Source of the DNA: an uncultured virus (IMG/VR IMGVR_UViG_3300042257_000233)
Lineage: Duplodnaviria > Heunggongvirae > Uroviricota > Caudoviricetes
IMG/VR virus record: IMGVR_UViG_3300042257_000233
Length of the DNA stretch: 64,000 nucleotides
Reading direction: 5' to 3' (one strand)
Below the pieces are notes generated by a model, which made no database searches, had not been told where the DNA came from, and worked only from the letters and a program-made list of their open reading frames with translations. The position numbers and the translations under genes are program-made. Of this stretch, positions 10,170 through 41,244 are shown one piece after another; positions within the stretch are counted from its first letter, which is position 1; the number at the start of each line of letters is the position of its first letter.

Positions 10170-10172
10170 TGA

Positions 10173-10547: not shown

Positions 10548-10555
10548 GAGATTAT

Positions 10556-11209: not shown

Positions 11210-14200
11210 AACGTGTAGTATTGCCATTTACCGGAAGCATGAACGATGTTGTTGACAGCTCTGCGCTTAAAAATGATGCTCTCAATGATATTGTTAACTA
11301 TGAACATAAAGACCCCGGTAAAATAACCAAGCGAGTATCGGTCGCTACGTATAACGCGACATTTAACTCTATAATTTTTGCGACATTTGATGAGGTTATT
11401 TATCAGCCTGACGAACCATTCTACCCAACGCGTCTCCCATCGGACGCCTATTCAGATGTGCTATTCCCTGTGTTTGGTGTAGATGCTGACGGTTATTACA
11501 GGCTTTGTCTGTTTTATCAATATGGTGCGTCTTCTTGGACGTATGAGGACATAGTAATAGATGGTGTTACTTACAACGATGATTCCGTTCTGCGCATTTC
11601 ATATACCGGTAACAAAATGAACATAGCTGATGGTGTAAACAAGTCTCATTTTGTTACAATAAACAAGGATAATGAGTTTGTTTATGCAATAAATGAGATT
11701 CCAAGGCCACTGAATAAACCAAAGGGCGTTGACACCACAGAATACAACCCGTCCATCTTCCAAGAAAATCTTGAAACCGGCAACTACATAAATTACTGCG
11801 GCGTGTATCGCTACTGGTACACATTTGTCACAGAAGATGGAGACGAAAGCAACCCATCACCGGCATCCAACTGGATAGATATGCAGTTCTTTAAAATTGA
11901 TGATGATGGTGTTGACGAGAGACAGGTTAAATCGGTAACAATATCAAACCTTAAAATTACGGATAATGCCGAAGCGATTAAAGATGAGATTAAGTATTTT
12001 AGGATTTATCGTGAAGAGCTTCAATATACAAACGGAATTGAGACTCGGACTCCTTTGTTTATTAAAGAGATAGAGATTTCAGACAAGGACGGCGACAACC
12101 AGTTCACCGACACTATTGCCATTCTTGCCGACAGTATCACCACTGATATTAATTATGAAAACGACTCTTCGCCGGTTGGCGTTGATGTTTGTAACGTTGG
12201 TGGAGTAACCGTTCTTGGTGGGATTAAAAAACGTATAGAGTTCCCATTTGCATTTGATAACTACCGCGAAGTTAAGATAACCAACAATAACGCAAAGAGC
12301 TTTGTTGATGGTGTTGTCCGCATTAAATTCGACGATATTGACGACTTTGGTGTTGACCCTGAAGTGCCAGACTGGGATTATTTGATGGCGAATAAAGATA
12401 AAGTGCGGATGTTCGACAATGACCTGACAACCCCACTCCCTGTTGTATATGAGGTTGACAGCGGCCTTGATACAACTGGATATGTAGACGGAGTAACTGA
12501 TGGTGATTTTTCTTCTGCACTCAATTGGACTACTGGTAGTAACTGGGTGATTTCTGGTGGTAGTGCCTCAAATACTGGAGCTACAGAAGATACTCTTTCA
12601 CAAGATGGAGTTATGGTTGATAAGGGGGCTAATTCTTATCATATTGTCTCTGCCGATTTCCAAATATCATCTGGCGGAGACACCGACGGGCTAACTATCC
12701 AAGATTATAAGCTGCATTATGGTAGTGGTTCGGGCCGCAGGAATGAGATATTTATTGTTGGCGGGAACGGGGCAGACGAAAAATTAAGCATCACAAAGTC
12801 TGCCGGGGCAAGTATACCGTATCTTGACAACGTAAAGGCTTACAGCGATAGTGGAAGCCCGTTTACTCAAAACCTAACAGACCCGGAAATGGAGAATCCT
12901 TCAGAATGGGCCATTGAAACCGGGTCAAGTTGGGTGCATAATACCGGATATTGGAGAAACGAGGAAACTACTGAAAAAAGCAGTCTAACAGGAGCCACAA
13001 CAACGCCAATTGTGGCAGGGACTAAATATCTTGTGACAATGTATTGCAACATTAAGAACGCCTCACCCGGTGATGAGTTGTTTTACGTTTCACTTGGTAC
13101 AACCTATGGACAAAATGGTTTTAGCATAACTGGAAATGGTCAACAATATATCACCCGTGTGGTTGAAGCTGGTAGCGGTGATTGCTGTAAAATATGGAAA
13201 ACAGACGATGGGACTGGTGATTTTTATTATGTTCGTGTTGTTGAAATTGATTATACAGTAAACAGCATAACAACGTATGTCAAATTGCCAGAAATACCAA
13301 TATCTGACAGCAAGACCATATATCAGACTTGGTGCAATAATGGCGGTGCAGAAGGTGTAAACAAAGCGGAATGGCGTGTTGCTGCCTATGGACAGTTTGT
13401 TGATTACAGCAATGCAATAGATTGGGCTTCACAAGAAACCTTTAAGAATGTATCCGTTGAAACAAACAACACAAAAGTATGCGCACCGCTTCAAATTACC
13501 GATGAGGTGTTTAACCGTGCAAACGCAAACATGAACGGTGAGATTGTTGGTAACTGCTCATTTTATACAAATAAAATCTGTTTACTCCCTGCTCTTGGTG
13601 TTGATTTAACAACATCAACAAAAAGCATAAGAATAAGCAGCGCAGTATCACCACCAACTGGTGTTGAGTTTAACTTCCCAGTGGAGCTTGACATCCCCGA
13701 TCGTGGTATTTTTGCTGCTGGATTTGTGAGTATAGACGGGACATATTTAACGGTAGACTCTGCGATAATAGACTTTGAGTTTGAACGCGAGGGGACACAG
13801 CATAACAGACTTTATATTGACTCCTCAGGTAACTGGAAGTGGACGGGGCAAGGAACAACATATACATTTTCAAATATTACAGCGGCAAGCACAGCCGCAG
13901 TGAAAGATTATTTCGTCTGCATATCTTGGGCCGAAGACGATAAAATAAGTCTGTTTGTATACAACCTTACTGACGATGACTTTAGTTATGAGGAAAAAAC
14001 TGGCAGTGAAAGCTATGCAAGATACCAGAACTTGAATATTATATGCCTTGGGTCAAGCAAGGATTCGTTTTATCCGGTACGTAATTCATATTTTGCAAAC
14101 TGGATAGTTGATACGAGCTTTTATCTTTCTGCTTCTGATGAAGCAAACATAAACGCAGTGCAGAACATGGCAAACAGAATGCCATGCACAAACGATGCCG

Positions 14201-15381
14201 TTATTGGATACGATTGGGTTAACGACACGGAAAATACAAACATCGTAATTGGCGATATTGAGAGTGCTGAATATGAAGATTATCTTGATTGGGTAGCGTA
14301 TTCAAAAGTGAACGGTCTTTCTTTCCCCGATAAATACATCAAAAAAGCCGCTGGTGAGGTTTTAAGGATAGTGCCGGTGCCGTCATACCTTAGGAACAGA
14401 ACGTCGTTCTCAAACTCAATTGTCGCGTTTTACAGGAATGGATTTAACGTATTCCCGTTAGAGGGCGACCCGTCCACGTGGAATGATTCTGCGGAGAACC
14501 TGATACCAGAGCGAAAGCGTGATGGTTTGGCTGCACTTAATTCTGTTGTTGTCACACCGTATGGGTTATTCTGGAGATCAGAGGCTGGTGTGATGATGTG
14601 GAATGCGTCACAGTACTCAAACGTATCGCTGAACAGGATAGATATTCCAATAAAAGATAGCATGGTGGGTATTTATATTCCGCTTGCGCAACAATATATC
14701 CTTCACGATAATGATGCAAGCTCAGAAACACTCGAAATATCAATAGCCGATGATAGAATTACACGAACAATCGGAAGCTGGGACACAGACACATACAAGG
14801 TTGGAGATAAGATATTTATATCAGACATGGATACTACGGCTAATAATAAGGGTTTTGTCCTTACTTACGTCAGTTCTTGGCAGCTTTGCATAGATGGTTC
14901 GACAGATGCTGAGACAGAACGGGCAACAATATCAACAACAAAGTCGTATGTTTATGACATCCCAGAAGATAAGTGGACAACATTCACTGGGCTTGATATT
15001 TTATTTGCATCGGCACTAAGTGGCGGTAACACAATTGAAAATGTAAACTTGTTCCTTGACAGATATGGGGAGATTAATAAATATCCAGACTATGACCAAA
15101 GTAAAACAAGTGTTAGTTCTTATGCAACAAAGATTTACAACACATACTACTCAGACTATGAAAACATTGAGCCAGTTATTGAGGGTTCTGGTACTTATGA
15201 GATTGTATCAACTGACACACAGAACTCAAACAGCAAAACAACAACTGGTACGGTTAACAACTACAAAGTTAATCAAATACCGTATGGCTATTATGGAGAA
15301 AAAATTCAGATAAAAATAAAAGATGCTGATGCAATAAAGAACGTTGTTTTAGCATATCGCCCAAGGAATACAAGGAGATAA
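11206..15381 (+). CDS. tail nozzle/stabilisation protein with inserted carbohydrate-binding-like domains, module A
   Basis: 1391 aa; YTFVTEDGDESNPSP, VVTPYGLFWRSEAGV; homologous to 51477-54689 plus 59428-59874. Confidence 0.7.
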   Translation: MKRVVLPFTGSMNDVVDSSALKNDALNDIVNYEHKDPGKITKRVSVATYNATFNSIIFATFDEVIYQPDEPFYPTRLPSDAYSDVLFPVFGVDADGYYRLCLFYQYGASSWTYEDIVIDGVTYNDDSVLRISYTGNKMNIADGVNKSHFVTINKDNEFVYAINEIPRPLNKPKGVDTTEYNPSIFQENLETGNYINYCGVYRYWYTFVTEDGDESNPSPASNWIDMQFFKIDDDGVDERQVKSVTISNLKITDNAEAIKDEIKYFRIYREELQYTNGIETRTPLFIKEIEISDKDGDNQFTDTIAILADSITTDINYENDSSPVGVDVCNVGGVTVLGGIKKRIEFPFAFDNYREVKITNNNAKSFVDGVVRIKFDDIDDFGVDPEVPDWDYLMANKDKVRMFDNDLTTPLPVVYEVDSGLDTTGYVDGVTDGDFSSALNWTTGSNWVISGGSASNTGATEDTLSQDGVMVDKGANSYHIVSADFQISSGGDTDGLTIQDYKLHYGSGSGRRNEIFIVGGNGADEKLSITKSAGASIPYLDNVKAYSDSGSPFTQNLTDPEMENPSEWAIETGSSWVHNTGYWRNEETTEKSSLTGATTTPIVAGTKYLVTMYCNIKNASPGDELFYVSLGTTYGQNGFSITGNGQQYITRVVEAGSGDCCKIWKTDDGTGDFYYVRVVEIDYTVNSITTYVKLPEIPISDSKTIYQTWCNNGGAEGVNKAEWRVAAYGQFVDYSNAIDWASQETFKNVSVETNNTKVCAPLQITDEVFNRANANMNGEIVGNCSFYTNKICLLPALGVDLTTSTKSIRISSAVSPPTGVEFNFPVELDIPDRGIFAAGFVSIDGTYLTVDSAIIDFEFEREGTQHNRLYIDSSGNWKWTGQGTTYTFSNITAASTAAVKDYFVCISWAEDDKISLFVYNLTDDDFSYEEKTGSESYARYQNLNIICLGSSKDSFYPVRNSYFANWIVDTSFYLSASDEANINAVQNMANRMPCTNDAVIGYDWVNDTENTNIVIGDIESAEYEDYLDWVAYSKVNGLSFPDKYIKKAAGEVLRIVPVPSYLRNRTSFSNSIVAFYRNGFNVFPLEGDPSTWNDSAENLIPERKRDGLAALNSVVVTPYGLFWRSEAGVMMWNASQYSNVSLNRIDIPIKDSMVGIYIPLAQQYILHDNDASSETLEISIADDRITRTIGSWDTDTYKVGDKIFISDMDTTANNKGFVLTYVSSWQLCIDGSTDAETERATISTTKSYVYDIPEDKWTTFTGLDILFASALSGGNTIENVNLFLDRYGEINKYPDYDQSKTSVSSYATKIYNTYYSDYENIEPVIEGSGTYEIVSTDTQNSNSKTTTGTVNNYKVNQIPYGYYGEKIQIKIKDADAIKNVVLAYRPRNTRR

Positions 15382-15382
15382 C

Positions 15383-16066
15383 ATGGCGAATCCTTATGAC
15401 AAGTATTTGAATCGGTTGCAGAGCAAGATTTCGCAAGACCCGTATTACCAACAGGCGAGGAGAACAGCCTTTGCAACAATGCCGCAACAAAACAGCTTTG
15501 GTGCATATTTAAACAGAGAGAATGTGCCAGTTGGTGTTGCGTCTCAAATGGAACTTGATAAACAGGCGCAGAGACAGAAGTCACTCACTGGCGTGGTTGA
15601 GAGAGCCGGTGAACTTGATGTTCAGAGAAAGGAACAGATAAGTGATAAGATTGCAGAGATTAAACTTAAACGGGATGAGTATGCAAAGCAGAAAAAAGAC
15701 GCACTAACCAGAACATTGTTTGAGGCTGGTGGTGCCGCGGTTGGAGCTGTTGCAGGCACAGTCGCTGCAGTTGGGACATTGGCTGGTTCTCAAATGGGTG
15801 CCTCTGCCGGACAGATTATCGGCGGGATACAGGGGGATACTCCTGAAGATATTACCGCAGGACTTGGCAATGCAATACAAACATTCTCACAAATATCAAC
15901 AAACAAATCACTGAAAAAACTTGGTGCATCAACCGGTAAGGCAGCAGAGATATTGTCTGGGATAGAAGACCCAGCACAGAGGCAAGCATTTTTAATGGAA
16001 TTTAATGTATTACGCACAACAGGAAATTATGATGGCATCGATGATCTTATCGGTAAATATCAGTAG
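15383..16066 (+). CDS. putative ejection (internal virion) protein
   Basis: Q/A/G-rich helical protein with glycine-zipper segment. Confidence 0.6.
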   Translation: MANPYDKYLNRLQSKISQDPYYQQARRTAFATMPQQNSFGAYLNRENVPVGVASQMELDKQAQRQKSLTGVVERAGELDVQRKEQISDKIAEIKLKRDEYAKQKKDALTRTLFEAGGAAVGAVAGTVAAVGTLAGSQMGASAGQIIGGIQGDTPEDITAGLGNAIQTFSQISTNKSLKKLGASTGKAAEILSGIEDPAQRQAFLMEFNVLRTTGNYDGIDDLIGKYQ

Positions 16067-16080
16067 AGCGGGGGCGGTTC

Positions 16081-16869
16081 ATGGCTTTAGCAGAAAAAAT
16101 TAGTCGGATATGGGATGAGCAAGAGAAAACCAAACAGAAGTTTATGGCTGAGGTGTACCAAAACATGCAGCAGATTGATGCCATGAAAACACAGCGTGAG
16201 GTCGAGAACAGACAGAAACTTGAACGTGAACAACTGCGCAAAGCGCAGACAATAACCGGGACACAGACAACACTAACCGATACCGGGCAAACAATCACAA
16301 CAGCCTACGAATCTGGCCGCACTCGCATGGACGTAACAGAAGACAAGAGAACACCAAAGCCAGTTGCACCAACATACCGTGAAATTAAATCTGGTGACGA
16401 AATTATAACATTACAAAACGGAAAAGAAATTGCAAGAAGTCCACGATTTAAAGAAACACAAAAAGAAGAATTCAAATTAGATGAATACGTTAACAAACAA
16501 AAGGCTCAGGATTATGTTTCTGAAATAACCAAAACAGAAGGAAACATTGCAGCAATAAACTCTGATATAACAACAACAACCGAAGAGATAGACGCAAAAA
16601 AGGCGGAGCTTGCATCTCTTGGTTCTGCAAGAAAGACAAGAGACCAGCGCAATTTACTGAGTCAGGAAATAAGTGAACTTGAAAAAACACTTAAATACTA
16701 CAACGCAGAACTTAAAGCAGAACAGAAAAGATATATGGCTGCTACCGATGGTCTTAAAAAACTTGGCAAGAAAAAAACAAGTGCGGACGTTGGCACAACG
16801 GGTAATAACAGGTTGACTGATGATGAGCGTAACCAAGCAAACAACATAACAGGAAAGTTGGGATTTTGA
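16081..16869 (+). CDS. putative ejection protein (coiled coil)
   Basis: Synteny and composition. Confidence 0.55.
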   Translation: MALAEKISRIWDEQEKTKQKFMAEVYQNMQQIDAMKTQREVENRQKLEREQLRKAQTITGTQTTLTDTGQTITTAYESGRTRMDVTEDKRTPKPVAPTYREIKSGDEIITLQNGKEIARSPRFKETQKEEFKLDEYVNKQKAQDYVSEITKTEGNIAAINSDITTTTEEIDAKKAELASLGSARKTRDQRNLLSQEISELEKTLKYYNAELKAEQKRYMAATDGLKKLGKKKTSADVGTTGNNRLTDDERNQANNITGKLGF

Positions 16870-19800
16870 TGATAGAAAACAAAAAAGTTACATGGCAAGA
16901 TGTTATTAATGACCAAGATTTTATTGATGCGCCAATTGCTGTTAAGCAAGAGGTTGCAAGCAGGTATTATCATAACGTGGTAGCCCAAGATGAGAATTTT
17001 GTTGCTGCTGACGACGCTGTTCGTAAAGAAGTAACAAATCGATTTAATGACGCTCTACAAATAGAGTTTGATAAAGAGAATCAGAGATTTCTTGATTGGC
17101 ACAATAATTTATTTTCATATTACAAAAATGACAATTTCCAAAACATGAACACCGAGCAACAAGTAAACGCAGCAATAGAAAACTTATCTTCGTATAAGTC
17201 TCGGTTTTTAGATTATTTGCCAAAAGAACATCGAGCCGAACTCAGTTCTCTTATTAGAGAAGAGAAAGATAAATTTTTGCAAATAAAAAATGACTATGAT
17301 AATGAAACGGCAGAGATAAAAGATATATTGGAAACTGGTGATGATGCTAAATTCAAGAACAACGACAAGGATGCTGCCTTTAATTCGGCACAACAAATAT
17401 ACCAGAAAACAAATGACATTAATCTTGCATTAGAAACATACCATAATCAAAGAGCATTAACGAAAAGGCTTATTGGAGAGCAATATCAAGAATTACAAAA
17501 TAAGGCAGAAAAACGTGGTATCTTAAACCCACTTTATACCGCTGCTGGTAATTTGGCAATGATGGGTGTTGGATTAGCAGGGTTTACTGACTCATTTCTA
17601 AATCAAGGTAAGCCAAACTCTAAACTAAAAGAAACAATCAAGAACATGAATAAAGTTCAACAGTTTTCAGTTACTACAAAAGCACACGACAAGGACGGAT
17701 TTAAGGGGAATATTTTAAAGGGTCGTGTTGGTGCTGCTGCTGATTTTGTCGTGAGAAAATCTGTTGAGTCATCTCCAATCTCAATGATAGCACTTGCCTC
17801 TGGAATGATTGGGTTGCCAGAAGTGGGGCTTGCATTAATTGGCACACTGTCTACAGGTGGGCAATATGCACAATTAACAGATGACACATTTAATGGTATG
17901 CCGGAGCAAAAAAAGATATTTAATTCTGCATTAAATGGAATGTCCGAGGTTATTACTGAGCAATTTGGTACAATGAAGAATGTAGCAAAATGGGGAAAGT
18001 TGGCCAAAAGAATTGGGCGTCAGCAGGCACAAGATCAATTAAGTAAAGAAATGAAGAGAAGTTTTTTAAAATCTATCGGTGAGAGGACAGCAGAGGGCTT
18101 TAAGGAAGAATTTTTAGAAGAGGGGTTTAATGGTATTGCAGGTAATGCAATTGCTTATGCTACTGGTGAAACAGATGAATTTAATTTAACCGACGGCGTG
18201 ATCGATGACGCATTTATTGGCGGGTTTAGCTCTTTGGGGTTAACCGGGACTGCTGGTGTTGCGCAAATTGCATTAGCAAAGGCACAATACAAGGCACAGT
18301 TAAAAGATATTGAAAGGGCGGCAGAAATTGAAAAACTAATTGGTGCAGAGTATATAAAGTCCGTCATCCCAGCTGTAAATAAATTCAAGAAAAAAATTAA
18401 TGGGAGATATGCACCTGATTATTACGGCGAAGAGAATCTGAATACGTTAAACAAACAAATAGAGAACATTGAAGCATCAATTGAAAGTGGTGATGCAGAC
18501 GGTGTGAAATTAAAAATATCAGTATTAAACCATTGGTTACAATCAGGCCAAATACAGCCAATAATCTTCAATGAAAATAATACAATGGGCAAAGACGCTG
18601 CCTTTGGATCAGAAGAGGTAACGGAAGAAACACCTGCTCCCGGGCAATTCACCCCAGAACAGGAAATGGCAAACACCGCAACGATCCTCACCAACAAGGC
18701 AGATGCAATAACTGAGCTATTAAATTCCGGTGATCTTGCTAATGCCGGGATTGAGCTTGATAGTATTGCAAAGGCAATTGAAGAACGCCCAGACAGCTTT
18801 AACCGACTCTTTGCAACCGAAGAGGGTAAAGAGCTGGCAATACTCCTTGATGAGCTTGACAAGCAATACACAGAGGCACAGGAAAACCTTACGACATTTG
18901 AGCGCAGGGCAGTGGACGCTAAGAAAAAACAAGTAGAGGAAGCTCAGGCCGAAGAGGAACAGACCGAAGAAGCCACCGAAACAGAGGTAATTGAGCAAGC
19001 AGAGATTCAAGCCGAAGAACCGGTAGAGCAAGAAGAAATAACCGAGCAGGCCGAAAGCACACCGAAACCGACGGTGAAATCAAAAAGCAGGAAGCCAAAG
19101 GCAGAGGCCAAGAAGCAGAAGACCTATGTACGTACCAGCAAGGGAGTATTTGAAGTAGAGCGAGAGACCGATAAAAGCTGGATACTCACCAATGGTACCA
19201 TTGCACGCAAAAGTGCCAAAGGCAACAGCATATCTACCGAGATGGCGTATAAGCGAAGTCTTGCCCGGCGCAAAGCACCCAGAAAACGCAAAGTAACCGA
19301 CGAGGTGAACTTGCGCACCAGCAATATCACGCCAGAGCGCACACCATTTCTTGACCATTTTAAAAGCACCGGGATGCAAACCAGTGATGTTGATTTGAAG
19401 AACTACCGCATCGGGATAAAGCCATTATTCAGCAAAGACGGTGTTGAGCTGGACAGAGTAATGGAGACCCTGAGTGACGACCACCCATTATGGGCTATGA
19501 CTCAGGGTGATACCGAAGCGTACAAACAAGGACTGCTGGGCGAGATAGACAAACTGTATAATCTTGGTGATGGGAGCTGGGATGAAGCAGATATGGAGCA
19601 GCAGGAAGCACTTGCAAATCAGCGCCAGGCAGAAGAAGAAGCTGCACAGCTTTTGAAGAAAGCTGAGAAGATACCGGCCATGGATCTAAACTTGAATGAC
19701 AAAGTAAAGTGGGTAGACCCGGAAACCGGGCTGGTGCATGAAGGAGTGGTGGTAGATGAAATGCCATGGTCAAAGGTGATTCAGAATAACGTGACAATGG

Positions 19801-22800
19801 AACTTGATGACTTTGAATCTTTGTATGTGCTGGATGTGCAGAAAGCTACCCCAGCTGAGGTGGCAGAGAAAAAAGAGGAGTTTGAGGAGAGTACGCAGCC
19901 TACTGAGGAGCAGCTGGAACACGGGGTAATACCGGAGCTGGACAACCAGATGGCGCAGTTTGGCCGCAGGGCAAATGAAAAGGCAGAGCAGGGTGAGCTT
20001 TTTGGTGAAACCGAAACGCCAGAGAAAGGCAAACCCCGGCAACTACCTAAAGATGAGCTGAAGAAGCTGGAAGAAAAGAAGCTGGCCGCCATCCAGACGG
20101 GCGGCAAAACCGGGGATGAGATAAAGGCACTGCAAGCCAAAGCCAGAGATGAAGCCCGCCGGGAACTGGAAGAAAAGTATTATGGCCGGGAGATTGACTT
20201 TGGTGAAGGGGTAACCGATACCCAAAAAATTACAGAGAAGCCAGCACCGGGACTTGCACCTCAACAGCCAGATATTGAAAAGCAAGCAGGGGTGAACCAT
20301 GATAATGTTATTGTCCATGACATTGAAACGATAAACGAAATCTCAGACAGGTTAAGTGTATTAGAAAACATTATCGGGAGGGGTAAAAGTTGGACAGAAC
20401 TAACAACGCAACAGCGTAAGGCGTTAATAAAAGAACAAAAAGACCTTGAATATAAATTGAACGATATGAAATCCCCACAGGATAAAATAACGCAAGTTGA
20501 GCACGGAACGGCCTACATTGAATTAGATAAAGAAATTGGATGGGCAATGGGGGATTATGGTAAGGAGGACAAAATATTTGTTTTACGATTTACCGATAAA
20601 CCAGAAACAGATATTTTGCGTAAAACCAGTGTTCATAACATAGGAGATGTTGACTGGAATGATCTTCCTGACTTTATACAAGAGAACTATTCTGAAGAAG
20701 ATGTAATAAATACCGAAACCGGGGAGAGGGCAATTATTCAAAAGGGGCTTAATGGTTTTCCCCTTGAGGCAAAACGACTAAAAGATGCAATAGAGGAGGC
20801 GAACAATGTGATATTGAGTACATCTGGTGGCAATACGTTGCGAACTTACGCAAATAAAAAAGAGGGCAAAAAAGAATATAATTTGATGAACATGAAAAAT
20901 GCTTATATCTTTGAGGGGGTTAATTTGGAATTTGATGATGTTCCAGATGGAATAGTTTTTTATCCTCACAGAATAGCGTTTTCATCACTTGAATCACCTC
21001 GGATCAAAAAAGTAAGTGTTGTCACAAAGCAAATTAAAGATGAACACATCGATAATGCGCACGAAACCGTTGACACATCGACGCAGGAACCGCCAGCACC
21101 GGTAGTGTTCACCGAGGGGCAGCGCAAGGTATTGAAAGCCTATGGTGCACTGAGTGCGCCGGAGGCAGAGCAGCTGGAAGTGCTGAAGATAGATGGAGCC
21201 ATAAAGCTGCTGAACCAGCGGATGAACCAGGCTGAGGAGAACAGCGATATAGACCAGATGAGTGCCATAGCCAAGCAGTTACGCGCCGAGGAGCGCAAGA
21301 TGAAGCGCTTAAAAAAAAACTACGGGGATACAAACAAAGAACGCTATGCTATAGATGTGGACGAACTGATACAGGAGATGAACGAGATTCAGGATTTATT
21401 GATTGGTGAGAGCGACCCCGGAAAACTGGCAGAGCTGCGAGATCGGGCTACGATAGTAAAGGAGATGATAGACGAATATCAAGGGGTGGAGAAACCGAAG
21501 GTTCGTAAGCAGAGTACCCCGAGAACAAAAACCGGCGGATCTATGCTGAAAAAGATACAGCGAGACCAGAAGGGCAATGCTATCGGCATTCGCAGCATTG
21601 TAGAGTTTGTAGACAAAAATCTACCGGTACACACCTATTGGCGCAAAGAACAGACCAGCCGCAAATACCCGGCGCACTACAATAAACGCGGTGGTTTCAT
21701 CCGCAGTCGGGCGATAAACTCTCAGATTGTATTTCATGAGCAGGGGCATGCCATGTATCAACGCATCATAGAACATGACAACGGGTTTGCCAGGAAGTAC
21801 GGCAAAGCATTGAAGGATGTAGCCAGGATGGACATGAGCATGGCCAGTGCCAATAATGCACATGAGGGATTTGCAGAGTGGCTGCGAAGATATATTGTGG
21901 CGCCAGAGACAATACAGGGTTTGAGTATTACCCCTAAGATTGAAGCCTATCTAACCGAGCGTTACCCACAGGCAAAGAAGGTATTTGATGACGCAGGACT
22001 GATGATGGACGCTCATAAGTCACGAAGCAAAGCCGCGCAATTCAGGAGTGCAAGCTCCGATTTACCGCAGCAGAAAATATTTGAGCACATCCGCGAAAAA
22101 GCAGGTATGCTGGGAGTAACCATCGCCAGAGGCTACGGGGTGGAGCATTTTGATCGTAAGATTGTAAATGAGATCATCAAAGAAGCACGTACACGCGCAG
22201 AGGGGATACGGCAAGCCCGGAAATGGCGCAGAGAGACGCTGGACGCCGTAGATCCAAAGGCCAGTTATCAGCAGATAGTACGCATCCCGGCAGAAGTAAA
22301 CGATGTGTTTTATGGCACAGAGCATGGGCGCAACGGGGTAAAGGTGATCGGTGAAGACGGCAATTACCGGTATCTTTATGATAAATCATTCAGGGAAATT
22401 TTTGAAATGGTTGGCAATGATCGATGGGATGATTTTCAGGATTACGTATGGGCCAAGGTAAGCAAAGAGCGTTGGGATGTGAAGCGGGTACGGTATCCGG
22501 GGATATTGGATGGGATAAAGCCAAAAGACCTGGGAGAAATCGCAGCCAGTTACGAAGAGGACAGTCCAGACTTTCCCGTGCTTCTGAATGAGATGAACCG
22601 GTATTTTGATGCATTGCTTGATGTTGCGCAGCTGAGCGGAGAATTCAGCGAAGATGCAGTGCAGGCTATGAAGGACACCTATGACGTGTATGCCCCTATG
22701 CTGCGGGAGACTCCTGATGGGATACGCACAATAACCGGAAGCCGCACTACTCCCAGCAGTGGAATAAAGGGTGTGAGAGGGGGGAGCTTAAACCCGTACA

Positions 22801-24893
22801 AGAACCTGCTGGAGTCGGCAGAAAAGCGAACCAGAGATGTATTGGGTGGGTATTACTGGAATAAACTGATTGGTGATCTGTACAAAGTAGGGCGAGAGAC
22901 AAGCAGCGATGAAACGTTACCCTATGATGTACGCAAGATGGCCGGAGAAATGATCACGGAGCTGCATCTTGACACGACAGTACCGGTACATCTTACTGAG
23001 GCAGAACAGCGACAGATCATTGCAGATTATTTAAATGAGAAGGAGGCAGAACAAGTGCCAGATGGCATGATGACGCTGGATAAGCTGGAAGCCGATGACA
23101 TAGACTTTGCGCCTGGGCACATGCCGATATTCAGAAAGAAAGCACCCAATGCAGTATATGTGGTAGCTCCGACCATCCCAAATAAAGGCAGAGTGTATTT
23201 GCAGATTAATGACCCAGTGCTTTTTTCGGTATTTGCCGAAAGCAAAGAACCGGCAAAAGTGTTTAAGCTGATGGACAAACTGTTTGGCCCGGTAGTGGCG
23301 GCATGGAAGCCAGGGATTACAGGAACAATACCATTTGCCTTGATTAATGGGCTGGCGCGGGACATAGCCAATGCTTCGTTTATGGGTACGGGATTGAAAG
23401 GAGCCATCCCTTACTATTATTTTCTCAAGGGAGCAGCAGGGCGAATTACCGGAAAAAGCAAGGACATACGTAAATCCAGTGAGCTGCTGGTAAAATCATT
23501 GGAATCTGCAGGAAGTGATGCGCAGAAGATGCGCCGGGATAAATTTATGGAAGAGCTGCGTAAGGGAATTGTGTTGCCGGAGTGGAAACGACTGGACTTC
23601 ACTGATAAAATGTTATCGATACCGGGAATTGCCATGCATGCAGCATTGAAGCCGTTACATCTCTTTTTGTATGGGACTGGGCAGATACAGTTAAGCGAAT
23701 TTTTGGAGTCACTACCTCGTGAAGGTGCAGCCATGCAAGAGAAAGAGAAAGGTGGGAGTGACCAACGGGTGAGCATGGCGTATGATACGATTACCGGTAA
23801 CTTTGCAGAGCACAGTGGCAGCGCTGATGTGCGCGCGATAATGCATACACTCGGGTTTGTTCAAGCAGGCCTTAACATTAGCTATCGCCAGTTTTTAAAA
23901 CTGACCGATCCGTTAGATTGGAAAAAAAATCTGATGCGTTTAGCTTGGAGCGGAGTAGGGATAACGGCAATAACCTGGGCTCTGAAAGAGTTGCTGAGTA
24001 CTGAACAGGATAATGAACGAGAGAACGAACGGCCAGAGGAAGATAGATTTGCCTACATGGACATCAAGGGATTGCGAATACCCTTTGACTATGGAATGAT
24101 CGGAGGATTACAGACATTTACATGGAACGTGCTGGACAGCACCGTAGGAGGTAAGTCGTTAGCACGGCGCAAGCTGTTTGCCAAGGCGATAGCAAAACGA
24201 GTGCTCGATGCGCCAGGGCCTACTGCGTTGATGGCGCCACAGGTGAAGGCATGGATTGAGATGAAAGCGAACTACAGCTTTTATTTTGATAAAGAGATTG
24301 AGCCATGGTGGATGCAAAACCTTCCGGAGGAAGAGCGGAGATATGCTGCAACACCTGAGATTTACAGCAAGGTCGGGAAATTGGCAAAGATGAGCCCGTT
24401 GAAACTCAAGTACTTGGTAGATCAGGGTTTCAATAGACAGTACAGTTATGCCTTTGGTCTGGCACAACGTGCCAAACGGGGAACACTTGATGCAGAATAC
24501 TTGCTGCGCGAGCCTGCCGACATCCCGTTTATTGGGCGGTTGTTTATACGTGAGCCCCTTGGCTGGGGTAGTGAATCGGTAAAAGTAGTGTCAGAGGCTG
24601 CGAATGATGCGGCTAAAGCAGAAGAGCAGATGCAGCAGGAGCTTGCATCTCTGGTGCAGCAATATGGTGAAGGCTGGAAAGATACTGAAGCCGGGCGAGC
24701 CGTTACGCTGCAATACATTACACTGAAAAAGATGAAAGAAGCGCAGCAAACAATAGATGCTATTTACAAAAAGATAAAAGAAGAAGAAAAGAAAGAGAAA
24801 CCAGACTGGGGCAAAGTGTATGCTTCAAGACAAGCAATGACCCGGACTGCACAAGAAGCATTAATGGCAACGAAATTACTGGAGGAAAAATGA
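16866..24893 (+). CDS. giant ejection/polyvalent protein with zincin-like metallopeptidase and LPD38-like C-terminus
   Basis: 2675 aa; HEQGH (21735-21749) plus HEGFAE; C-terminal LRIPFDYG...P.IE..ANYSFY. Confidence 0.8.
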   Translation: MMIENKKVTWQDVINDQDFIDAPIAVKQEVASRYYHNVVAQDENFVAADDAVRKEVTNRFNDALQIEFDKENQRFLDWHNNLFSYYKNDNFQNMNTEQQVNAAIENLSSYKSRFLDYLPKEHRAELSSLIREEKDKFLQIKNDYDNETAEIKDILETGDDAKFKNNDKDAAFNSAQQIYQKTNDINLALETYHNQRALTKRLIGEQYQELQNKAEKRGILNPLYTAAGNLAMMGVGLAGFTDSFLNQGKPNSKLKETIKNMNKVQQFSVTTKAHDKDGFKGNILKGRVGAAADFVVRKSVESSPISMIALASGMIGLPEVGLALIGTLSTGGQYAQLTDDTFNGMPEQKKIFNSALNGMSEVITEQFGTMKNVAKWGKLAKRIGRQQAQDQLSKEMKRSFLKSIGERTAEGFKEEFLEEGFNGIAGNAIAYATGETDEFNLTDGVIDDAFIGGFSSLGLTGTAGVAQIALAKAQYKAQLKDIERAAEIEKLIGAEYIKSVIPAVNKFKKKINGRYAPDYYGEENLNTLNKQIENIEASIESGDADGVKLKISVLNHWLQSGQIQPIIFNENNTMGKDAAFGSEEVTEETPAPGQFTPEQEMANTATILTNKADAITELLNSGDLANAGIELDSIAKAIEERPDSFNRLFATEEGKELAILLDELDKQYTEAQENLTTFERRAVDAKKKQVEEAQAEEEQTEEATETEVIEQAEIQAEEPVEQEEITEQAESTPKPTVKSKSRKPKAEAKKQKTYVRTSKGVFEVERETDKSWILTNGTIARKSAKGNSISTEMAYKRSLARRKAPRKRKVTDEVNLRTSNITPERTPFLDHFKSTGMQTSDVDLKNYRIGIKPLFSKDGVELDRVMETLSDDHPLWAMTQGDTEAYKQGLLGEIDKLYNLGDGSWDEADMEQQEALANQRQAEEEAAQLLKKAEKIPAMDLNLNDKVKWVDPETGLVHEGVVVDEMPWSKVIQNNVTMELDDFESLYVLDVQKATPAEVAEKKEEFEESTQPTEEQLEHGVIPELDNQMAQFGRRANEKAEQGELFGETETPEKGKPRQLPKDELKKLEEKKLAAIQTGGKTGDEIKALQAKARDEARRELEEKYYGREIDFGEGVTDTQKITEKPAPGLAPQQPDIEKQAGVNHDNVIVHDIETINEISDRLSVLENIIGRGKSWTELTTQQRKALIKEQKDLEYKLNDMKSPQDKITQVEHGTAYIELDKEIGWAMGDYGKEDKIFVLRFTDKPETDILRKTSVHNIGDVDWNDLPDFIQENYSEEDVINTETGERAIIQKGLNGFPLEAKRLKDAIEEANNVILSTSGGNTLRTYANKKEGKKEYNLMNMKNAYIFEGVNLEFDDVPDGIVFYPHRIAFSSLESPRIKKVSVVTKQIKDEHIDNAHETVDTSTQEPPAPVVFTEGQRKVLKAYGALSAPEAEQLEVLKIDGAIKLLNQRMNQAEENSDIDQMSAIAKQLRAEERKMKRLKKNYGDTNKERYAIDVDELIQEMNEIQDLLIGESDPGKLAELRDRATIVKEMIDEYQGVEKPKVRKQSTPRTKTGGSMLKKIQRDQKGNAIGIRSIVEFVDKNLPVHTYWRKEQTSRKYPAHYNKRGGFIRSRAINSQIVFHEQGHAMYQRIIEHDNGFARKYGKALKDVARMDMSMASANNAHEGFAEWLRRYIVAPETIQGLSITPKIEAYLTERYPQAKKVFDDAGLMMDAHKSRSKAAQFRSASSDLPQQKIFEHIREKAGMLGVTIARGYGVEHFDRKIVNEIIKEARTRAEGIRQARKWRRETLDAVDPKASYQQIVRIPAEVNDVFYGTEHGRNGVKVIGEDGNYRYLYDKSFREIFEMVGNDRWDDFQDYVWAKVSKERWDVKRVRYPGILDGIKPKDLGEIAASYEEDSPDFPVLLNEMNRYFDALLDVAQLSGEFSEDAVQAMKDTYDVYAPMLRETPDGIRTITGSRTTPSSGIKGVRGGSLNPYKNLLESAEKRTRDVLGGYYWNKLIGDLYKVGRETSSDETLPYDVRKMAGEMITELHLDTTVPVHLTEAEQRQIIADYLNEKEAEQVPDGMMTLDKLEADDIDFAPGHMPIFRKKAPNAVYVVAPTIPNKGRVYLQINDPVLFSVFAESKEPAKVFKLMDKLFGPVVAAWKPGITGTIPFALINGLARDIANASFMGTGLKGAIPYYYFLKGAAGRITGKSKDIRKSSELLVKSLESAGSDAQKMRRDKFMEELRKGIVLPEWKRLDFTDKMLSIPGIAMHAALKPLHLFLYGTGQIQLSEFLESLPREGAAMQEKEKGGSDQRVSMAYDTITGNFAEHSGSADVRAIMHTLGFVQAGLNISYRQFLKLTDPLDWKKNLMRLAWSGVGITAITWALKELLSTEQDNERENERPEEDRFAYMDIKGLRIPFDYGMIGGLQTFTWNVLDSTVGGKSLARRKLFAKAIAKRVLDAPGPTALMAPQVKAWIEMKANYSFYFDKEIEPWWMQNLPEEERRYAATPEIYSKVGKLAKMSPLKLKYLVDQGFNRQYSYAFGLAQRAKRGTLDAEYLLREPADIPFIGRLFIREPLGWGSESVKVVSEAANDAAKAEEQMQQELASLVQQYGEGWKDTEAGRAVTLQYITLKKMKEAQQTIDAIYKKIKEEEKKEKPDWGKVYASRQAMTRTAQEALMATKLLEEK
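19081..19431 (+). repeat. direct repeat copy 1 (copy 2 at 63650-64000)
   Basis: 19092-19431 vs 63661-64000: 9 mismatches in 340 nt by manual count; offset 44,569 bp. Confidence 0.97.
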
Positions 24894-25345
24894 AGGTGAT
24901 AGACATTACTTCTCGATTTATGGACAACGCCATAGCGGAGAAAGAGCACCGCAATGCCGTTTGGCATTGGACGGGTGGAGGAACAGCCCAGGGAGCAATC
25001 GACTGGCTGGACAAACGGCTGGAAGGGAAAGGCAGTGTAGGGTACAACTACATTATCGGACGAGATGGAAACGTGTATATGCTGGCAGATCCACGAACGC
25101 ATTACATGCACAACACGGGGTCACACTCTACCATCCCGTCAAAGGGTACGGTTTCGATTTCCTTTGCCTGCCGCAATGCAGAGCATGGCATTACCGAAGC
25201 GCAGATTGCAGCGGCACGAGATCTGGTGAAGCAGCTTAATGACTGGTTTGTGCTCAAGCACTACCATCATGCGCAGGTAAACAGCACAAAAATAGACTTT
25301 CCCAGCGATATGTGGGAAAGTCTGAAGAAACAGATCGGTATTTAG
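24890..25345 (+). CDS. N-acetylmuramoyl-L-alanine amidase (Amidase_2-type endolysin)
   Basis: VWHWTGG, VGYNYIIGRDG, EAQ, HYHH Zn-amidase motifs. Confidence 0.85.
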   Translation: MKVIDITSRFMDNAIAEKEHRNAVWHWTGGGTAQGAIDWLDKRLEGKGSVGYNYIIGRDGNVYMLADPRTHYMHNTGSHSTIPSKGTVSISFACRNAEHGITEAQIAAARDLVKQLNDWFVLKHYHHAQVNSTKIDFPSDMWESLKKQIGI

Positions 25346-28410: not shown

Positions 28411-29229
28411 TTGAAACCATATTACGAAACAGATAACGGAAAGCTATTTTGCTGTGATAATGTAAAATATCTGAATACAGTAAGGGATAACACTTTCGAT
28501 TTGACAGTTACATCACCACCATACGATAAAATGAGAGACTATAAAGGATATACTTGGAATTATAAAAAATTAGCAAAAGAACTATACCGCATTACAAAGG
28601 ATGGCGGTGTGGTTGTTTGGGTAGTTGGAGACCAGACAATTAACGGAAGTGAAACTGGAACATCGTTTAAGCAAGCATTGTATTTCAAGGAAATAGGCTT
28701 CAATCTTCACGACACCATGATATATGAAAAAGCAGGCACTGGAGCCTGCGGTTCTAACAAGTGTTACTGGCAAGCTTTTGAATATATGTTTGTATTCGTG
28801 AAAGGCAAAATAAAAACCTATAACCTTATTGAAGATGTGGTCAACCTATCCGCAGGGAAAGTAAAAACAAATTCAGCTAGACGCAAGCCGACCGGCGAGC
28901 ACAAACAAGAGGAACGAAAAAAAGGCAAACCTTTTTCAAGGCGGACCAACATATGGAGATATCCGGTAGGAGTCGATACAAGGCGAGAAAAAGCGTTGAA
29001 AGAGCATCCTGCCATATTCCCCGAACAATTAGCAAAAGATCATATTATTTCTTGGAGCAATGAAGGTGATACAGTGTTTGACCCGTTTATGGGAAGCGGA
29101 ACTACTGCAAAGATGTGTGAGAAATCAAATCGAAAGTGGGTTGGCTGTGAAATATCAGAAGAATACTGCAAAATAGCGAAACAAAGAGTGAAAAATGAAA
29201 GAGAACAGCTTAAACCTAGTTTCATATAA
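28411..29229 (+). CDS. orphan N4-C/N6-A DNA methyltransferase (beta class)
   Basis: TSPPY catalytic motif before HPAIFP and FDPFMGSGTT SAM-binding motif. Confidence 0.93.
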   Translation: MKPYYETDNGKLFCCDNVKYLNTVRDNTFDLTVTSPPYDKMRDYKGYTWNYKKLAKELYRITKDGGVVVWVVGDQTINGSETGTSFKQALYFKEIGFNLHDTMIYEKAGTGACGSNKCYWQAFEYMFVFVKGKIKTYNLIEDVVNLSAGKVKTNSARRKPTGEHKQEERKKGKPFSRRTNIWRYPVGVDTRREKALKEHPAIFPEQLAKDHIISWSNEGDTVFDPFMGSGTTAKMCEKSNRKWVGCEISEEYCKIAKQRVKNEREQLKPSFI

Positions 29230-30802: not shown

Positions 30803-30899
30803 CCCCCACACCACGGGCGCTGGTGGCACGGTTATCTCCTTCCGTGCGAACTTGGTGCTGGCGCCCGATTTTAAAACTCAATACAAACCGGGAGGACGT

Positions 30900-37868: not shown

Positions 37869-38180
37869 ATGAGCGGTGAAATGCAATGCAAGAGTGGTGC
37901 CAAAGTTTTGCACGATGTTGGCACGGTAGCCAAGTCGATAGGCACAGGCCGGAATCGGCTGTTTGATTTTCTGCGGGAAAAGAATCTGCTTAATCATATG
38001 TCAATCCCCTATCAGCGGTATATTGATCGGGGGTACTTTGAGGTGAAGCAGCAGAAATACAAACAGGGCAAGGTGCTGCGGATGCGGATGAAGACCATGC
38101 TTACCGCATCCGGCGTGGAGTATGTAAAACGGCTGTGGCAAGAGAGTGGCGACGTGCAGGGAGTGTTGGACTTTGGCTAA
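37869..38180 (+). CDS. phage antirepressor KilAC (ANT) domain protein
   Basis: GRNRLFDFLREKN...PYQRYIDRGYFEVK...LTASG. Confidence 0.9.
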   Translation: MSGEMQCKSGAKVLHDVGTVAKSIGTGRNRLFDFLREKNLLNHMSIPYQRYIDRGYFEVKQQKYKQGKVLRMRMKTMLTASGVEYVKRLWQESGDVQGVLDFG

Positions 38181-38901
38181 GAAGCGCAGTTATCCCAGCG
38201 ACCCAATCCGCGATACTGAGAAGCTGGCCGACCTTCAGCGTAGCATGATGGATGCAGGGCTGGTGCGTGAATGCCTGCTTTTTCAGCTGCAATACAATAC
38301 GAATCTGCGGGTGAGTGATGCATTGCGCCTGCGGTGGGGTGATGTGCTGGATGATGACAGGAATATCGTGGAGACGGTGAGTCTGCTCGAGAAGAAGATT
38401 GCCCACACCGGGCGGTACAAGAAGGTGATACTAAACAGCCAGATACGGGCATCCCTGCTGAACTACTACCACAGATACAAGCCAAAGCCCCGGGAATTTA
38501 TCTTTCGCAGCCAGAGCAACCGGATAGGGTATCGGAACCGGCCCTGGACACCCAACTGGCCGCGTCGGGTATTTAATGAGCACGCAAAAAAGGTGGGCAT
38601 AAAGGGTCACATTGGCACCCACACTCCGCGCAAGACCTTTGGCTGGATGGCCTACAACGTGCTGGGCATCCCGCTGGATGAGATTATGACGCTGCTGAAC
38701 CACACCGACCCCAGGGTGACGGCGCTGTATTGCGGGCTGACTGAGGACCGGCAGCGGGAGCAGTACGAGAAGGTGGCCGAGGTAAATTGTGCGGCTGATG
38801 GGCTGATACGGATTGACCGGCTGCCGGACAACCCGTGGCGCGAGAAAACGCTTGCCCGGCACCGGCGTCGAGGCTATAAAAAGACGAAAAAGAAGGCATG
38901 A
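38173..38901 (+). CDS. tyrosine recombinase 1 (catalytic domain only)
   Basis: LRVSD, HTPRKTFG, LNH, ALYCG; TTG start at 38173 preferred. Confidence 0.9.
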   Translation: MAKKRSYPSDPIRDTEKLADLQRSMMDAGLVRECLLFQLQYNTNLRVSDALRLRWGDVLDDDRNIVETVSLLEKKIAHTGRYKKVILNSQIRASLLNYYHRYKPKPREFIFRSQSNRIGYRNRPWTPNWPRRVFNEHAKKVGIKGHIGTHTPRKTFGWMAYNVLGIPLDEIMTLLNHTDPRVTALYCGLTEDRQREQYEKVAEVNCAADGLIRIDRLPDNPWREKTLARHRRRGYKKTKKKA

Positions 38902-38929
38902 AAAAGGCCCCGGATATCCGGGGCCTTTT
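38902..38929. terminator. bidirectional terminator (perfect 28-bp palindrome)
   Basis: AAAAGGCCCCGGAT-ATCCGGGGCCTTTT between convergent operons. Confidence 0.85.
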
Positions 38930-38946: not shown

Positions 38947-39204
38947 TTACTTTAGCCTTTCGGCGTTTGCAATCCCCTCAAAAGACAAGGGGATGTTTTG
39001 GGTCTTTATAATTTCTGGTGTGCCTTCGTATACCGCACACACCAGGCACGGCATACCTGCCATGTTTTTGATCTGACGCATTGAAACCAATGCGCCGTTT
39101 TGAAGGGTTTCTAATTCTTTCACCCCGTCTTGAGCGAAAGTGAAAACCATCTGGTTTTCGTCGAACCAGCTCCTTGGAAGCTCTTTCAATTTTGCCTGTG
39201 CCAT
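38947..39204 (-). CDS. hypothetical protein
   Basis: Coupled (TGATG) to recombinase 2. Confidence 0.6.
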   Translation of the reverse strand: MAQAKLKELPRSWFDENQMVFTFAQDGVKELETLQNGALVSMRQIKNMAGMPCLVCAVYEGTPEIIKTQNIPLSFEGIANAERLK

Positions 39205-39839
39205 CAGTCCTCCCTGGCGTTAATTTGCGGGATCTCGTACATGCGAGCCACCGCGTCTTGCATTTCATCCAATTCCTCACGCAGCAGCCCGATATAGCGC
39301 AGCGTGGTGCTTTGCTTGGTGTGGCCGTACCACTCCATCAATTTGACGATGTCAAATTTCGGATTTTTGGAGTTATCTATCAAGACCCGGCCAAAGGTCT
39401 TGCGCAGCGAGTGCGGCGAGATGTGACTTTTAGTGTCGCGGTTGTATTGCTGAAATATCCGCCACACATTTGTGCGGTCTACGGGCCGCATGCCTTTGGT
39501 GTCTTTGTGCGATGGAAACAGGGGCATCCCTGTTTTGATTTTATTGCGGCGGACGTATTCCTTTATCTCGCCGCGGATGCTGTCCTGCACCTTGAAGGTA
39601 AACATCTTGCCGGTTTTGCCCTGCTTCACCTTCACGTACTCCTTAAATCGCAGAGTCCGGTTCTCTTCGCTGTGAAACACATCTTCATAGCGAAGGCGCA
39701 GCACGTCGCCGATGCGCATTGCGCAGTGCGAAGCGAACAAGATGATTGCCCGGTTGCGGCCTGTTTTGTCCATTTCGCCAGCCCAGGCCAGCAGTAGCCT
39801 GAGCTGTTTGGGTGTGAGCGGGTAGGTCGTTGCTCCCAT
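39204..39839 (-). CDS. tyrosine recombinase 2 (catalytic domain only)
   Basis: MRIGD, KTGK, HSLRKTFG, YGH, TLRYIG. Confidence 0.92.
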   Translation of the reverse strand: MGATTYPLTPKQLRLLLAWAGEMDKTGRNRAIILFASHCAMRIGDVLRLRYEDVFHSEENRTLRFKEYVKVKQGKTGKMFTFKVQDSIRGEIKEYVRRNKIKTGMPLFPSHKDTKGMRPVDRTNVWRIFQQYNRDTKSHISPHSLRKTFGRVLIDNSKNPKFDIVKLMEWYGHTKQSTTLRYIGLLREELDEMQDAVARMYEIPQINARED

Positions 39840-40154
39840 TTATGCCTCCTTGTAGAAGTCGAGTTCAAGCCCGAAGGTTTCTTCTTCGATTTCACGTCTG
39901 GCCTGCTCTCGTGCCTGATTTTGTAGTGCTATTATTTCGTCACCGGTTTTGCCGCCGGTCTGGATGCAGGCCAGCTTTTGCCGGGTGCGGTCTTTAAGTT
40001 CGCGGGCGGGCAAGTGCCTGCTCGGAGTGGTTTGGGGTGTGGTGTCCCATATCTCGATCTGGGTTGCTGTCTGGTTATGCTTACGCCACCGTGCAGCCTG
40101 GGGTGTGTCCAGCTCTGGGATTATCCCAGAGCTGAGTTGTTCATCTGTTTGCAT
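39840..40154 (-). CDS. stand-alone homologue of an internal segment of the giant virion protein
   Basis: Shares EQL..G.IPELD and IQTGGKTGDEI.ALQ..AR..ARRE.EE with the 19896-20201 translation. Confidence 0.8.
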   Translation of the reverse strand: MQTDEQLSSGIIPELDTPQAARWRKHNQTATQIEIWDTTPQTTPSRHLPARELKDRTRQKLACIQTGGKTGDEIIALQNQAREQARREIEEETFGLELDFYKEA

Positions 40155-40156
40155 AA

Positions 40157-40471
40157 TCAGTCCTCCACCCTGTCATGAAGTGGGATCGGGTATCTTGAAA
40201 TATCGGTAAAACGTGAATCGCATGTGTAGATGAACGTGCCACCCATCATCCCCCGTTTACCTTTTATCTCGATAGGTTTAGCATAAATGTAATCTACACC
40301 ATTGAACGTCCTGGTGTGAATGGTTACTGCTGGTGCGTCTTCTGTTGGTTCATAAAACTGCGGTAAACGCCTGTCTATAATTGTAACTTGGTTTACTTTT
40401 GAACTGACTCCATTCTTAGATCCATCTCCAAGCTTGGCAGACTTGAAAATTTCAGCGATAAATCCTTTCAT
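40157..40471 (-). CDS. conserved hypothetical phage protein
   Basis: MMGGTF..TCDSRF...PIPLHDR pattern. Confidence 0.7.
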   Translation of the reverse strand: MKGFIAEIFKSAKLGDGSKNGVSSKVNQVTIIDRRLPQFYEPTEDAPAVTIHTRTFNGVDYIYAKPIEIKGKRGMMGGTFIYTCDSRFTDISRYPIPLHDRVED

Positions 40472-40752
40472 TTCTCCTCCAATTTAGCAAACGAGCTAAA
40501 GATAAAGACATCTCTGCCCGCGTCGCTTAACTTTTTGCAATAAGCGCCAAGCGCCGTAACGGGGAATCCGGTTAACGGAATCGGGTTTTCATTGCTTATA
40601 CACTTTGCGGTAAGCGTAATGCCCAGAATTTTGGCTACGGTTTTCGCATCGTCAAAAAAGGTTTCACAAAAATCACCAAGCCTTAAAAGCACCAAAGCGT
40701 TAGGGTGCTTCTCCTTAACAGTAATGAATTGCTTTGTTAATGGCGTCATCAT
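40468..40752 (-). CDS. stand-alone MutS domain I protein
   Basis: TPL.KQF..VK.KHP.ALVLLRLGDFCETF.DDA...LGITLT...GFP; ATG 40752 after AGGAG. Confidence 0.88.
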   Translation of the reverse strand: MMTPLTKQFITVKEKHPNALVLLRLGDFCETFFDDAKTVAKILGITLTAKCISNENPIPLTGFPVTALGAYCKKLSDAGRDVFIFSSFAKLEEK

Positions 40753-41244
40753 CTTCTCCTCCTTGGCCTGTTGGCCTTTTTTGTTTTCAATCACGATGCG
40801 AAACTGCAACAGCGCAACAAAACCGTCAATAAAAATCTCCAAACTGTTGCGCAAGATGAATTCTGAAAATCCACAAACCGGCTGCTGATGCGGGTTTGCA
40901 GCCACAAAAAAAAAATAAAACACTGCAACCCTGCGCAAAAATCGCAAAAATGACAAAATCCGGGGTGAAAATGAGGTGAAAAAAGGGTAATCTTAGCAGC
41001 ACGTAAGTGAACGCAGGCACCTGCACCCGCACCCGCGCAACCGCGCGCGCCCGCATGTTGCGCAGAAAAAGGCAGCAGAAAGAGGGCAGAAATCAGCACC
41101 AGCAGCGGCCTGCAGCCGGGCAGCGGTGAGGAACTGTGTTTTTTCAGGGCGGTTGATGTGAGAAAGTGCTTGACATCGTAGGCAGTAAACTACTACATAA
41201 AAGGCACTTAGATTGCGAATTTAAAAGAGTCGTACCTAAAAATT

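Follow-up and report, generated by a model that had tools for sequence, protein, structure and literature searches.

The 64,000-nt stretch of DNA analysed here (the window) is the IMG/VR record IMGVR_UViG_3300042257_000233 of an uncultured virus of the Caudoviricetes, and it carries two homologous copies of a protein module of about 100 amino acids (aa), one embedded in a giant mosaic protein and the other encoded on the opposite strand as a small gene of its own. An earlier note, made from the letters alone, had proposed that an unnamed domain exists in this DNA in an embedded and a free form; both forms stand up to closer analysis, with the giant belonging to the polyvalent class of phage proteins and the module matching no database family. 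Judged from sequence comparison, the two copies appear to be old paralogues within one phage genome, one embedded and one solo, and the module constitutes a new and very narrow family that is restricted, as far as the searches reach, to one wastewater phage lineage. The reading we prefer, to which we give a little less than an even chance, is that of a lineage-specific, non-enzymatic binding module that would be supplied both by the virion and by new synthesis.

The embedded copy lies at 19896..20201 on the plus strand and corresponds to aa 1011-1112 of the giant, in frame within the open reading frame (ORF) 16866-24893. It carries the motif TEEQLxxGVIPELD, followed by a variable linker and then by LPxxELK...KLAAIQTGGKTGDEIKALQ...ARRELEE..G.EIDF. 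The solo copy is a 104-aa ORF at 39840..40154, for which the earlier note had given no strand and which is now fixed on the minus strand only, because the plus-strand reading contains a stop; it starts with ATG behind a GGAGGA Shine-Dalgarno sequence and encodes a protein with an isoelectric point (pI) of 5.2. The homology that had been claimed between the two is real and far above chance. BLASTP aligns them with 53/100 identities (53% over 100 aa), 68% positives, 2 gaps and an E-value of 1e-33, and their local alignment score of 243 compares with a mean of 30.7 (standard deviation 5.3, maximum 58) in 1000 shuffles of the internal segment. The alignment joins aa 1011-1112 of the giant to residues 3-100 of the solo protein, and no similarity extends past the ends of the small ORF. 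At the DNA level only the core of the two copies can be aligned (75% over 96 nt). When three giant alleles were compared with the rest of the window by tblastn, the module stretch was the sole match, and none of the remaining proteins of the operon that contains the solo gene matched any giant allele.

The substitution pattern indicates that both copies are under purifying selection. Between the solo and the embedded copy, the proportion of synonymous differences (pS) is saturated at 0.86-0.91 while that of nonsynonymous differences (pN) is 0.32-0.34; between the embedded alleles of the window and of G001, the nearest public record, pS is 0.49, pN 0.04 and dN/dS 0.05. GC content and GC content at third codon positions (GC3) are similar in the two copies (0.55/0.59). 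The translation signals of the solo gene are intact: GGAGGA precedes its ATG by 6 nt, and the stop of the gene upstream is only 2 nt away from the ORF. A second solo allele of 105 aa (P0004) is 87% identical and starts and ends as the solo ORF does. Furthermore, contigs of 3 of 4 metagenome runs, possibly all from one campaign, cover the solo ORF partly or wholly with 0 differences, the fourth run having no contig over it. The selection, the intact signals and the second allele together argue that the free ORF is not a decaying duplicate, an outcome that the earlier note had named as fatal to its proposal.

The protein that contains the embedded copy has 2675 aa and is encoded at 16866..24893 on the plus strand, the listed TTG being a putative start; its gene is placed after tail-region genes and before the gene for an amidase endolysin (24890-25345). 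By its sequence it qualifies as a phage-type polyvalent protein, since it is large and its alleles hold several unrelated domains that include the diagnostic LPD38 and ART-PolyVal. In the window giant, Pfam places LPD38 at aa 2404-2538 (E 2.4e-9, 38 bits against a cut-off of 27), and in the sister allele P0008 it finds both ART-PolyVal (E 7.7e-19) and a full LPD38 (E 1.7e-40). HExxH strings were spotted by eye in the window giant (HEQGH) and in P0008 (HECVH), in neither case with a Pfam peptidase match. Comparison of four giant alleles shows how these proteins are put together. The window allele (2675 aa) combines an N-terminus A with a module M and a C-terminus X, P0006 (2663 aa) an N-terminus B with M and X, and P0008 (3181 aa) the N-terminus B with M and a C-terminus Y, while the G001 allele (2775 aa) has N-terminus B and M followed by a different stretch and then C-terminus X. 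Module M (18972..20288, plus strand; aa 703-1141 in the window allele, with the shared end at 1115/1141) is therefore the sole part common to all four alleles, and the duplicated module makes up its final ~100 aa.

The allele breakpoints lie at or just past the duplicated module, which has acidic and P/Q/E-rich linkers on either side. At the nucleotide level the window and G001 are 99-100% identical immediately upstream of it (19620-19889) and 79-93% identical within it, and beyond about 20210 the identity is lost. Since the embedded module sits at an allele boundary and identity shifts across it, it behaves as an exchangeable unit. The solo ORF comprises the module and nothing else and is equipped with a start, a stop and a ribosome-binding site of its own. 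The more probable course of transfer is therefore the accretion of a solo gene by the giant, in line with the general argument of Iyer et al. 2017. A weak resemblance between KTGDEIIALQN in the module and KSGDEIITLQN in a 262-aa protein encoded upstream of the giant was judged to be chance (hhalign probability 23%).

The module, or its N-terminal motif, could alternatively be a virion-incorporation signal that directs proteins to the procapsid or portal, with the solo product packaged as a minor virion protein. Apart from the location of the module within the only constant segment of the giant, this idea draws on an unrelated 37-kb viral contig (L009), in which a 379-aa protein (5923-7062) in scaffold position, directly upstream of the major head gene, carries near its N-terminus the run GIIPELDTPQA, 11 residues identical to the N-terminal motif of the solo protein and differing from the solo ORF at the DNA level by synonymous changes. 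The run may reflect a short linear motif common to both proteins, or it may be chance; the match must be taken as suggestive only, because the search pattern forces 8 of the 11 residues, 120 pattern hits were obtained and a chance origin is roughly put at 0.01. Moreover, giants associated with either of two unrelated structural modules have module M in common, which argues against a specific contact with capsid or portal, and the solo gene is not part of the structural module, so that we regard a virion-incorporation signal as improbable.

The narrowness of the family emerges from a series of searches. A hidden Markov model of four copies, a search of the kind that the earlier note had suggested, retrieved 3 of 1,835,955,588 representative proteins with HMMER; the family was recovered, in the form of the solo ORF and two giant alleles, and nothing beyond these was found. 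The solo ORF and module M gave no match in INPHARED by tblastn. In IMG/VR, a single-protein search yielded 1 confirmed hit out of 9 pattern hits, namely G001 itself, and an alignment search confirmed 4 of 120 hits, comprising the two G001 copies and two short partial matches, one in L009 and the other in a repetitive K/E-rich protein (L008) that was judged a chance hit. The module was present in 0 of 226 candidate metagenome contigs from JGI and encoded in 0 of 149 candidate stretches of GTDB genomes. A word-indexed protein search confirmed 2 of 4 candidates of near-equal length and 0 of 500 longer ones. Apart from the two short partial matches, these collection searches brought up only the G001 copies and the second solo allele.

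An alignment of four or five copies divides the module into an N-terminal motif (T-x-EQL-x-x-G-[IV]-IP-[EA]-LD), some 30 residues with little conservation and a C-terminal block (R-x-LP-x-x-ELK ... KLA-x-IQTGGKTG[D/G]EI-x-ALQ-x-x-AR-x-x-AR-x-E-x-EE ... G-x-E-x-DF). Conservation is strongest in the C-terminal block, which is predicted to form a hairpin with a nearly invariant turn, IQTGGKTG(D/G)EI. The AlphaFold2 (AF2) model of the solo protein, the stand-alone prediction that had been proposed earlier, shows short N-terminal helices (4-8 and 18-28), a disordered linker (29-49) and a helical hairpin (helices 50-66 and 71-103, pLDDT 76-87), at an overall pLDDT of 68 and a pTM of 0.29. Prediction in the embedded context gives this hairpin again, although the remainder of module M is poorly modelled there (AF2 pLDDT 49). 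The ESM Atlas offered generic helical matches only, with TM scores of at most 0.55 and none of them usable. The string AIQTGGKT corresponds to the Walker A pattern [AG]xxxxGK[ST], and a P-loop nucleoside triphosphatase was considered and rejected; the string falls in the turn of a hairpin made of helices only, a fold of this kind would not fit into so short a module, and in the solo copy of the window C takes the first place of the pattern. With its acidic character (pI 4.9-5.2 among the module proteins), the predicted module appears non-enzymatic and without signs of a DNA binder, and it fits a binding or oligomerising adaptor.

In the reading that we prefer, the module would serve as a protein-binding adaptor or effector that meets one partner by two routes. 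By the first route it would arrive pre-made, carried within the polyvalent virion protein and possibly cut free by the giant's own HExxH peptidase-like region; by the second, it would be newly made from the accessory operon as a small separate protein. A related but distinct explanation is that the partner of the module is the module itself. The hairpin would then oligomerise, and the solo protein would pair or compete with the embedded copy, either as a factor in assembling or holding the giant or as a dominant-negative product with which a resident phage could block the polyvalent protein of superinfecting relatives. The predicted helical hairpin would be typical of bundle-forming modules, the invariant turn and its flanking helices are retained in both paralogues, and the solo gene lies in an accessory operon near recombinase genes, a gene with an ANT domain and a CI-like repressor gene, within a temperate-type gene set. 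Since the module is constant among otherwise variable giants, such a decoy would work on all alleles. However, neither a lysogen nor a prophage copy was found among the 149 candidate stretches of GTDB genomes, and we consider self-association or a decoy function unlikely. A long shot is that the solo gene provides a decoy, or a timed second dose, of the one unit that stays constant in a hypervariable injected protein. A phage that is resident or already replicating would make the free module, which would occupy the partner needed by the incoming polyvalent proteins of related phages; this would amount to superinfection exclusion based on a paralogue.

Several observations weigh against a binding module supplied by two routes. 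The module has no match above cut-off in Pfam, PHROG, NCBIfam, PADLOC or PDB sequences, the solo model has no structural match in BFVD (Foldseek, best E 1.2), and in the databases searched there is no relative of known function. The solo model itself is of low-to-moderate confidence and was built on a 4-row alignment. Evolutionary sampling is thin, with the family known from a handful of near-identical contigs, and the HExxH region of the giant, on which release of the module might depend, lacks any Pfam match. Lastly, part of the solo ORF may be constrained as nucleic acid rather than as protein, given that codons 7-15 contain a perfect 25-bp palindrome (40110..40134) with 12-nt arms and a 1-nt centre. 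Both of its strands encode SSGIIPEL, it folds into a 12-bp RNA hairpin, and it is missing from the embedded copy. In the second solo allele, the replacements S9A and E14A fall on paired positions of the palindrome and would preserve the pairing if they are single-base changes (TCT>GCT and GAG>GCG), as deduced from the protein sequence only.

Together with the tiny size of the family, the palindrome could be taken to mean that the solo ORF has no function as a protein, being a leftover duplicate or mainly the carrier of the palindrome. This seems very improbable to us in view of a pN of 0.34 at saturated pS, a conservation that spans 100 aa and peaks in the hairpin, far from the palindrome, and a reading frame, start, stop and Shine-Dalgarno sequence that are intact in two alleles.

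The solo gene is the third of five genes in a minus-strand operon. At its head lies a gene encoding domain I only of MutS (40468..40956; MutS model positions 1-83, E 9e-25), whose product is likely the ~94-aa protein that starts at 40752 (40471-40752), similar to the 95-aa version in G001. It is followed by a 104-aa gene assigned to phrog_6045 (40157..40471), the solo gene, the gene for recombinase 2 (39204..39839) and an 85-aa gene without a family match (38947..39204). The head of the operon differs in G001, where a 112-aa ORF is added and the MutS-domain-I gene has another N-terminal part. Convergent with the operon, a gene with a KilAC/ANT domain (37845-38180, plus strand) precedes that of recombinase 1 (38146..38901, plus strand; 251 aa, PF00589). 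Between recombinase 1 and the operon, a perfect 28-bp GC-rich palindrome (38902..38929) with runs of A and T on either side is likely a bidirectional terminator. Recombinase 2, a tyrosine recombinase of 211 aa, matches PF00589 over aa 8-184 (E 3.6e-19), and R42, K75, H143, R146, H173 and Y182, which we take to be the catalytic residues of tyrosine recombinases, are invariant in 9 aligned sequences. It covers only positions 104-283 of the 290 of the XerD model and thus lacks the N-terminal core-binding domain. The two recombinases are 28% identical to each other and form a convergent pair of catalytic-domain-only enzymes.

The earlier note had described the free gene as coupled to a recombinase and had listed a recombination cofactor among its possible roles. 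The contact itself is borne out by the sequence, the solo TAA directly adjoining the recombinase 2 ATG (TAAATG) at the junction ...AAGGAGGCATAAATG..., and one could suppose that the solo protein is an accessory subunit or directionality factor of recombinase 2. Both genes belong to one operon, and recombinase 2, being the catalytic half only, might need a partner. In addition, the second solo allele and a 91% identical allele of recombinase 2 (P0010) are each known from one 2420-bp Logan contig, probably one and the same. The adjacency is, however, not conserved in the only more distant relative with a visible context, the 2302-bp metagenome contig L011. It encodes a recombinase 2 homologue (54% identical) and keeps the convergent arrangement with recombinase 1 (318-1669) as well as the ANT gene, yet the slot upstream of the recombinase 2 homologue holds an unrelated STIV_B116-like ORF, identified by reading and a Pfam scan, the module profile not having been run on this contig. 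Because another gene stands in this position, the slot appears to be one for variable accessory genes. Likewise, in two contexts from Firmicute phages, short integrase-like genes located upstream of terminase genes have no constant ~100-aa partner upstream. The acidic solo protein was also considered as an excisionase, a recombination directionality factor or a core-binding domain and rejected as such, as proteins of these kinds are usually basic and it has no match to a helix-turn-helix, winged-helix, excisionase or Phage_int_SAM family in Pfam. Finally, a role as cofactor leaves the presence of the module in the virion protein unexplained. Such a role thus has a slim chance in our view, and the stop-start contact is best read, on the gene order observed, as tight packing in which the position of the solo gene is incidental.

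A bolder version of the long shot named above would make the 25-bp palindrome a site for the adjacent recombinases, which lack a core-binding domain, with the solo and giant genes forming a site-specific cassette system. If true, the clustering of allele breakpoints at the module would be accounted for. The 21-nt core of the palindrome has no exact match in GTDB genomes, and a second full site is absent from the window. At up to 2 mismatches, the 12-mer half-site occurs 14 times in the window, compared with 4.8 +/- 2.1 in shuffles; the palindrome itself accounts for two of these occurrences. Near half-site matches at 41563 and 32508 were considered as att-type sites and found unconvincing.

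As to the phage itself, G001 is a viral contig of 45,291 bp with a terminal repeat of 127 bp. Window positions 40749-64000 correspond to G001 403-23651 at 99.3% identity and 19076-40665 are matched piecewise by G001 23296-44233, while 1-19075 form a separate structural module with terminase and portal genes of its own. The window is hence longer than one genome and contains two unrelated structural modules, A (1-19075) and B (40749-64000), on either side of a common region, each with terminase, portal, head and tail genes. Positions 19109-19431 recur at 63678-64000, inside both giant genes. This layout represents two variants in tandem or else an assembly that mixes co-occurring strains. No INPHARED record is more than 29% identical to the large terminase, which places the phage at a distance from cultured phages, and the gene set is of the temperate type, with an HTH_3/CI-like repressor, the KilAC/ANT gene and the two tyrosine recombinases. 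Its DNA was detected in wastewater and bioreactor metagenome runs only (17 runs listed); in 10 of the 17, at least 0.2 of the sampled words were present, and 2 of those 10 may be the source sample.

Some further features of the window deserve mention. Upstream of the packaging genes of structural module A lies a type II hammerhead ribozyme (1495-1558, minus strand; Rfam RF02276, 50.3 bits against a gathering score of 37, E 2.3e-7). Structural module B contains a diversity-generating retroelement (55018-57736), in which the C-terminal end of a tail protein gene (phrog_5302, 55018-56430) includes a 113-nt repeat at 56300-56412, a copy of the repeat that is 81% identical follows at 56457-56569, and a reverse transcriptase gene then lies at 56681-57736. 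Two genes of the common region possibly have anti-restriction functions, one for a 410-aa protein (30774-32006, plus strand) with weak sub-cut-off matches to Lar restriction-alleviation and DUF5131 families, and the other for an N6/N4 DNA methyltransferase (28411-29229, plus strand; PF01555, E 5.5e-46).

Polyvalent proteins are thought to bring into the cell the tools that a phage needs in the first minute, and most of their units, or beads, have no known function. A constant bead that has a selected solo paralogue in the same genome and is small enough to be expressed by itself offers a convenient handle for finding what such beads bind. The general importance of the module is modest because its family is tiny and lineage-bound; what it adds is paralogy within one genome, strong selection and the palindrome. 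An arrangement of this kind is already to be expected from Iyer et al. 2017 and from the Alt and Mod proteins of phage T4.

In the part of Iyer et al. 2017 (PMC5512222) used here, polyvalent proteins are inferred to be packaged and delivered at entry, an embedded MPTase peptidase of the zincin type is proposed to release their units, and several of their domains also occur solo, such versions being common, the polyvalent proteins having been assembled from solo versions. The giant of the window resembles these proteins, as far as that part of the source describes them, in being a giant multidomain phage protein with LPD38, which is listed there as phage-only, in having an allele with ART-PolyVal, and in carrying units on linkers that are shuffled among alleles. 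Unlike the domains described there, the module matches no Pfam LPD model, although an unnamed equivalent may be present in the alignments of that paper; it also differs in being restricted to one lineage and in that its solo and embedded forms are paralogues in one genome. Recombinase 2, for its part, is similar to catalytic-domain-only integrases of Firmicute phages (Streptococcus phage phi3396 gp27 and Terrisporobacter phage TPELB_ph1 CDS0058), to which it is 29-34% identical, with a similar length and a position a few kb upstream of terminase genes. In contrast to those, the window has two convergent paralogues, and recombinase 2 is found in the tail of an accessory operon on the opposite strand.

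The T4 proteins Alt, ModA and ModB, which are paralogues of one another, offer the second comparison. They are ADP-ribosyltransferases with known targets, whereas the module has no enzyme-like features. According to the part of the T4 literature used here (PMC2988021), Alt is an internal protein of the head and is injected along with the DNA, and ModA and ModB are early products. By analogy, the embedded and solo copies described here would likewise be paralogues of which one is supplied pre-made and the other by new synthesis.

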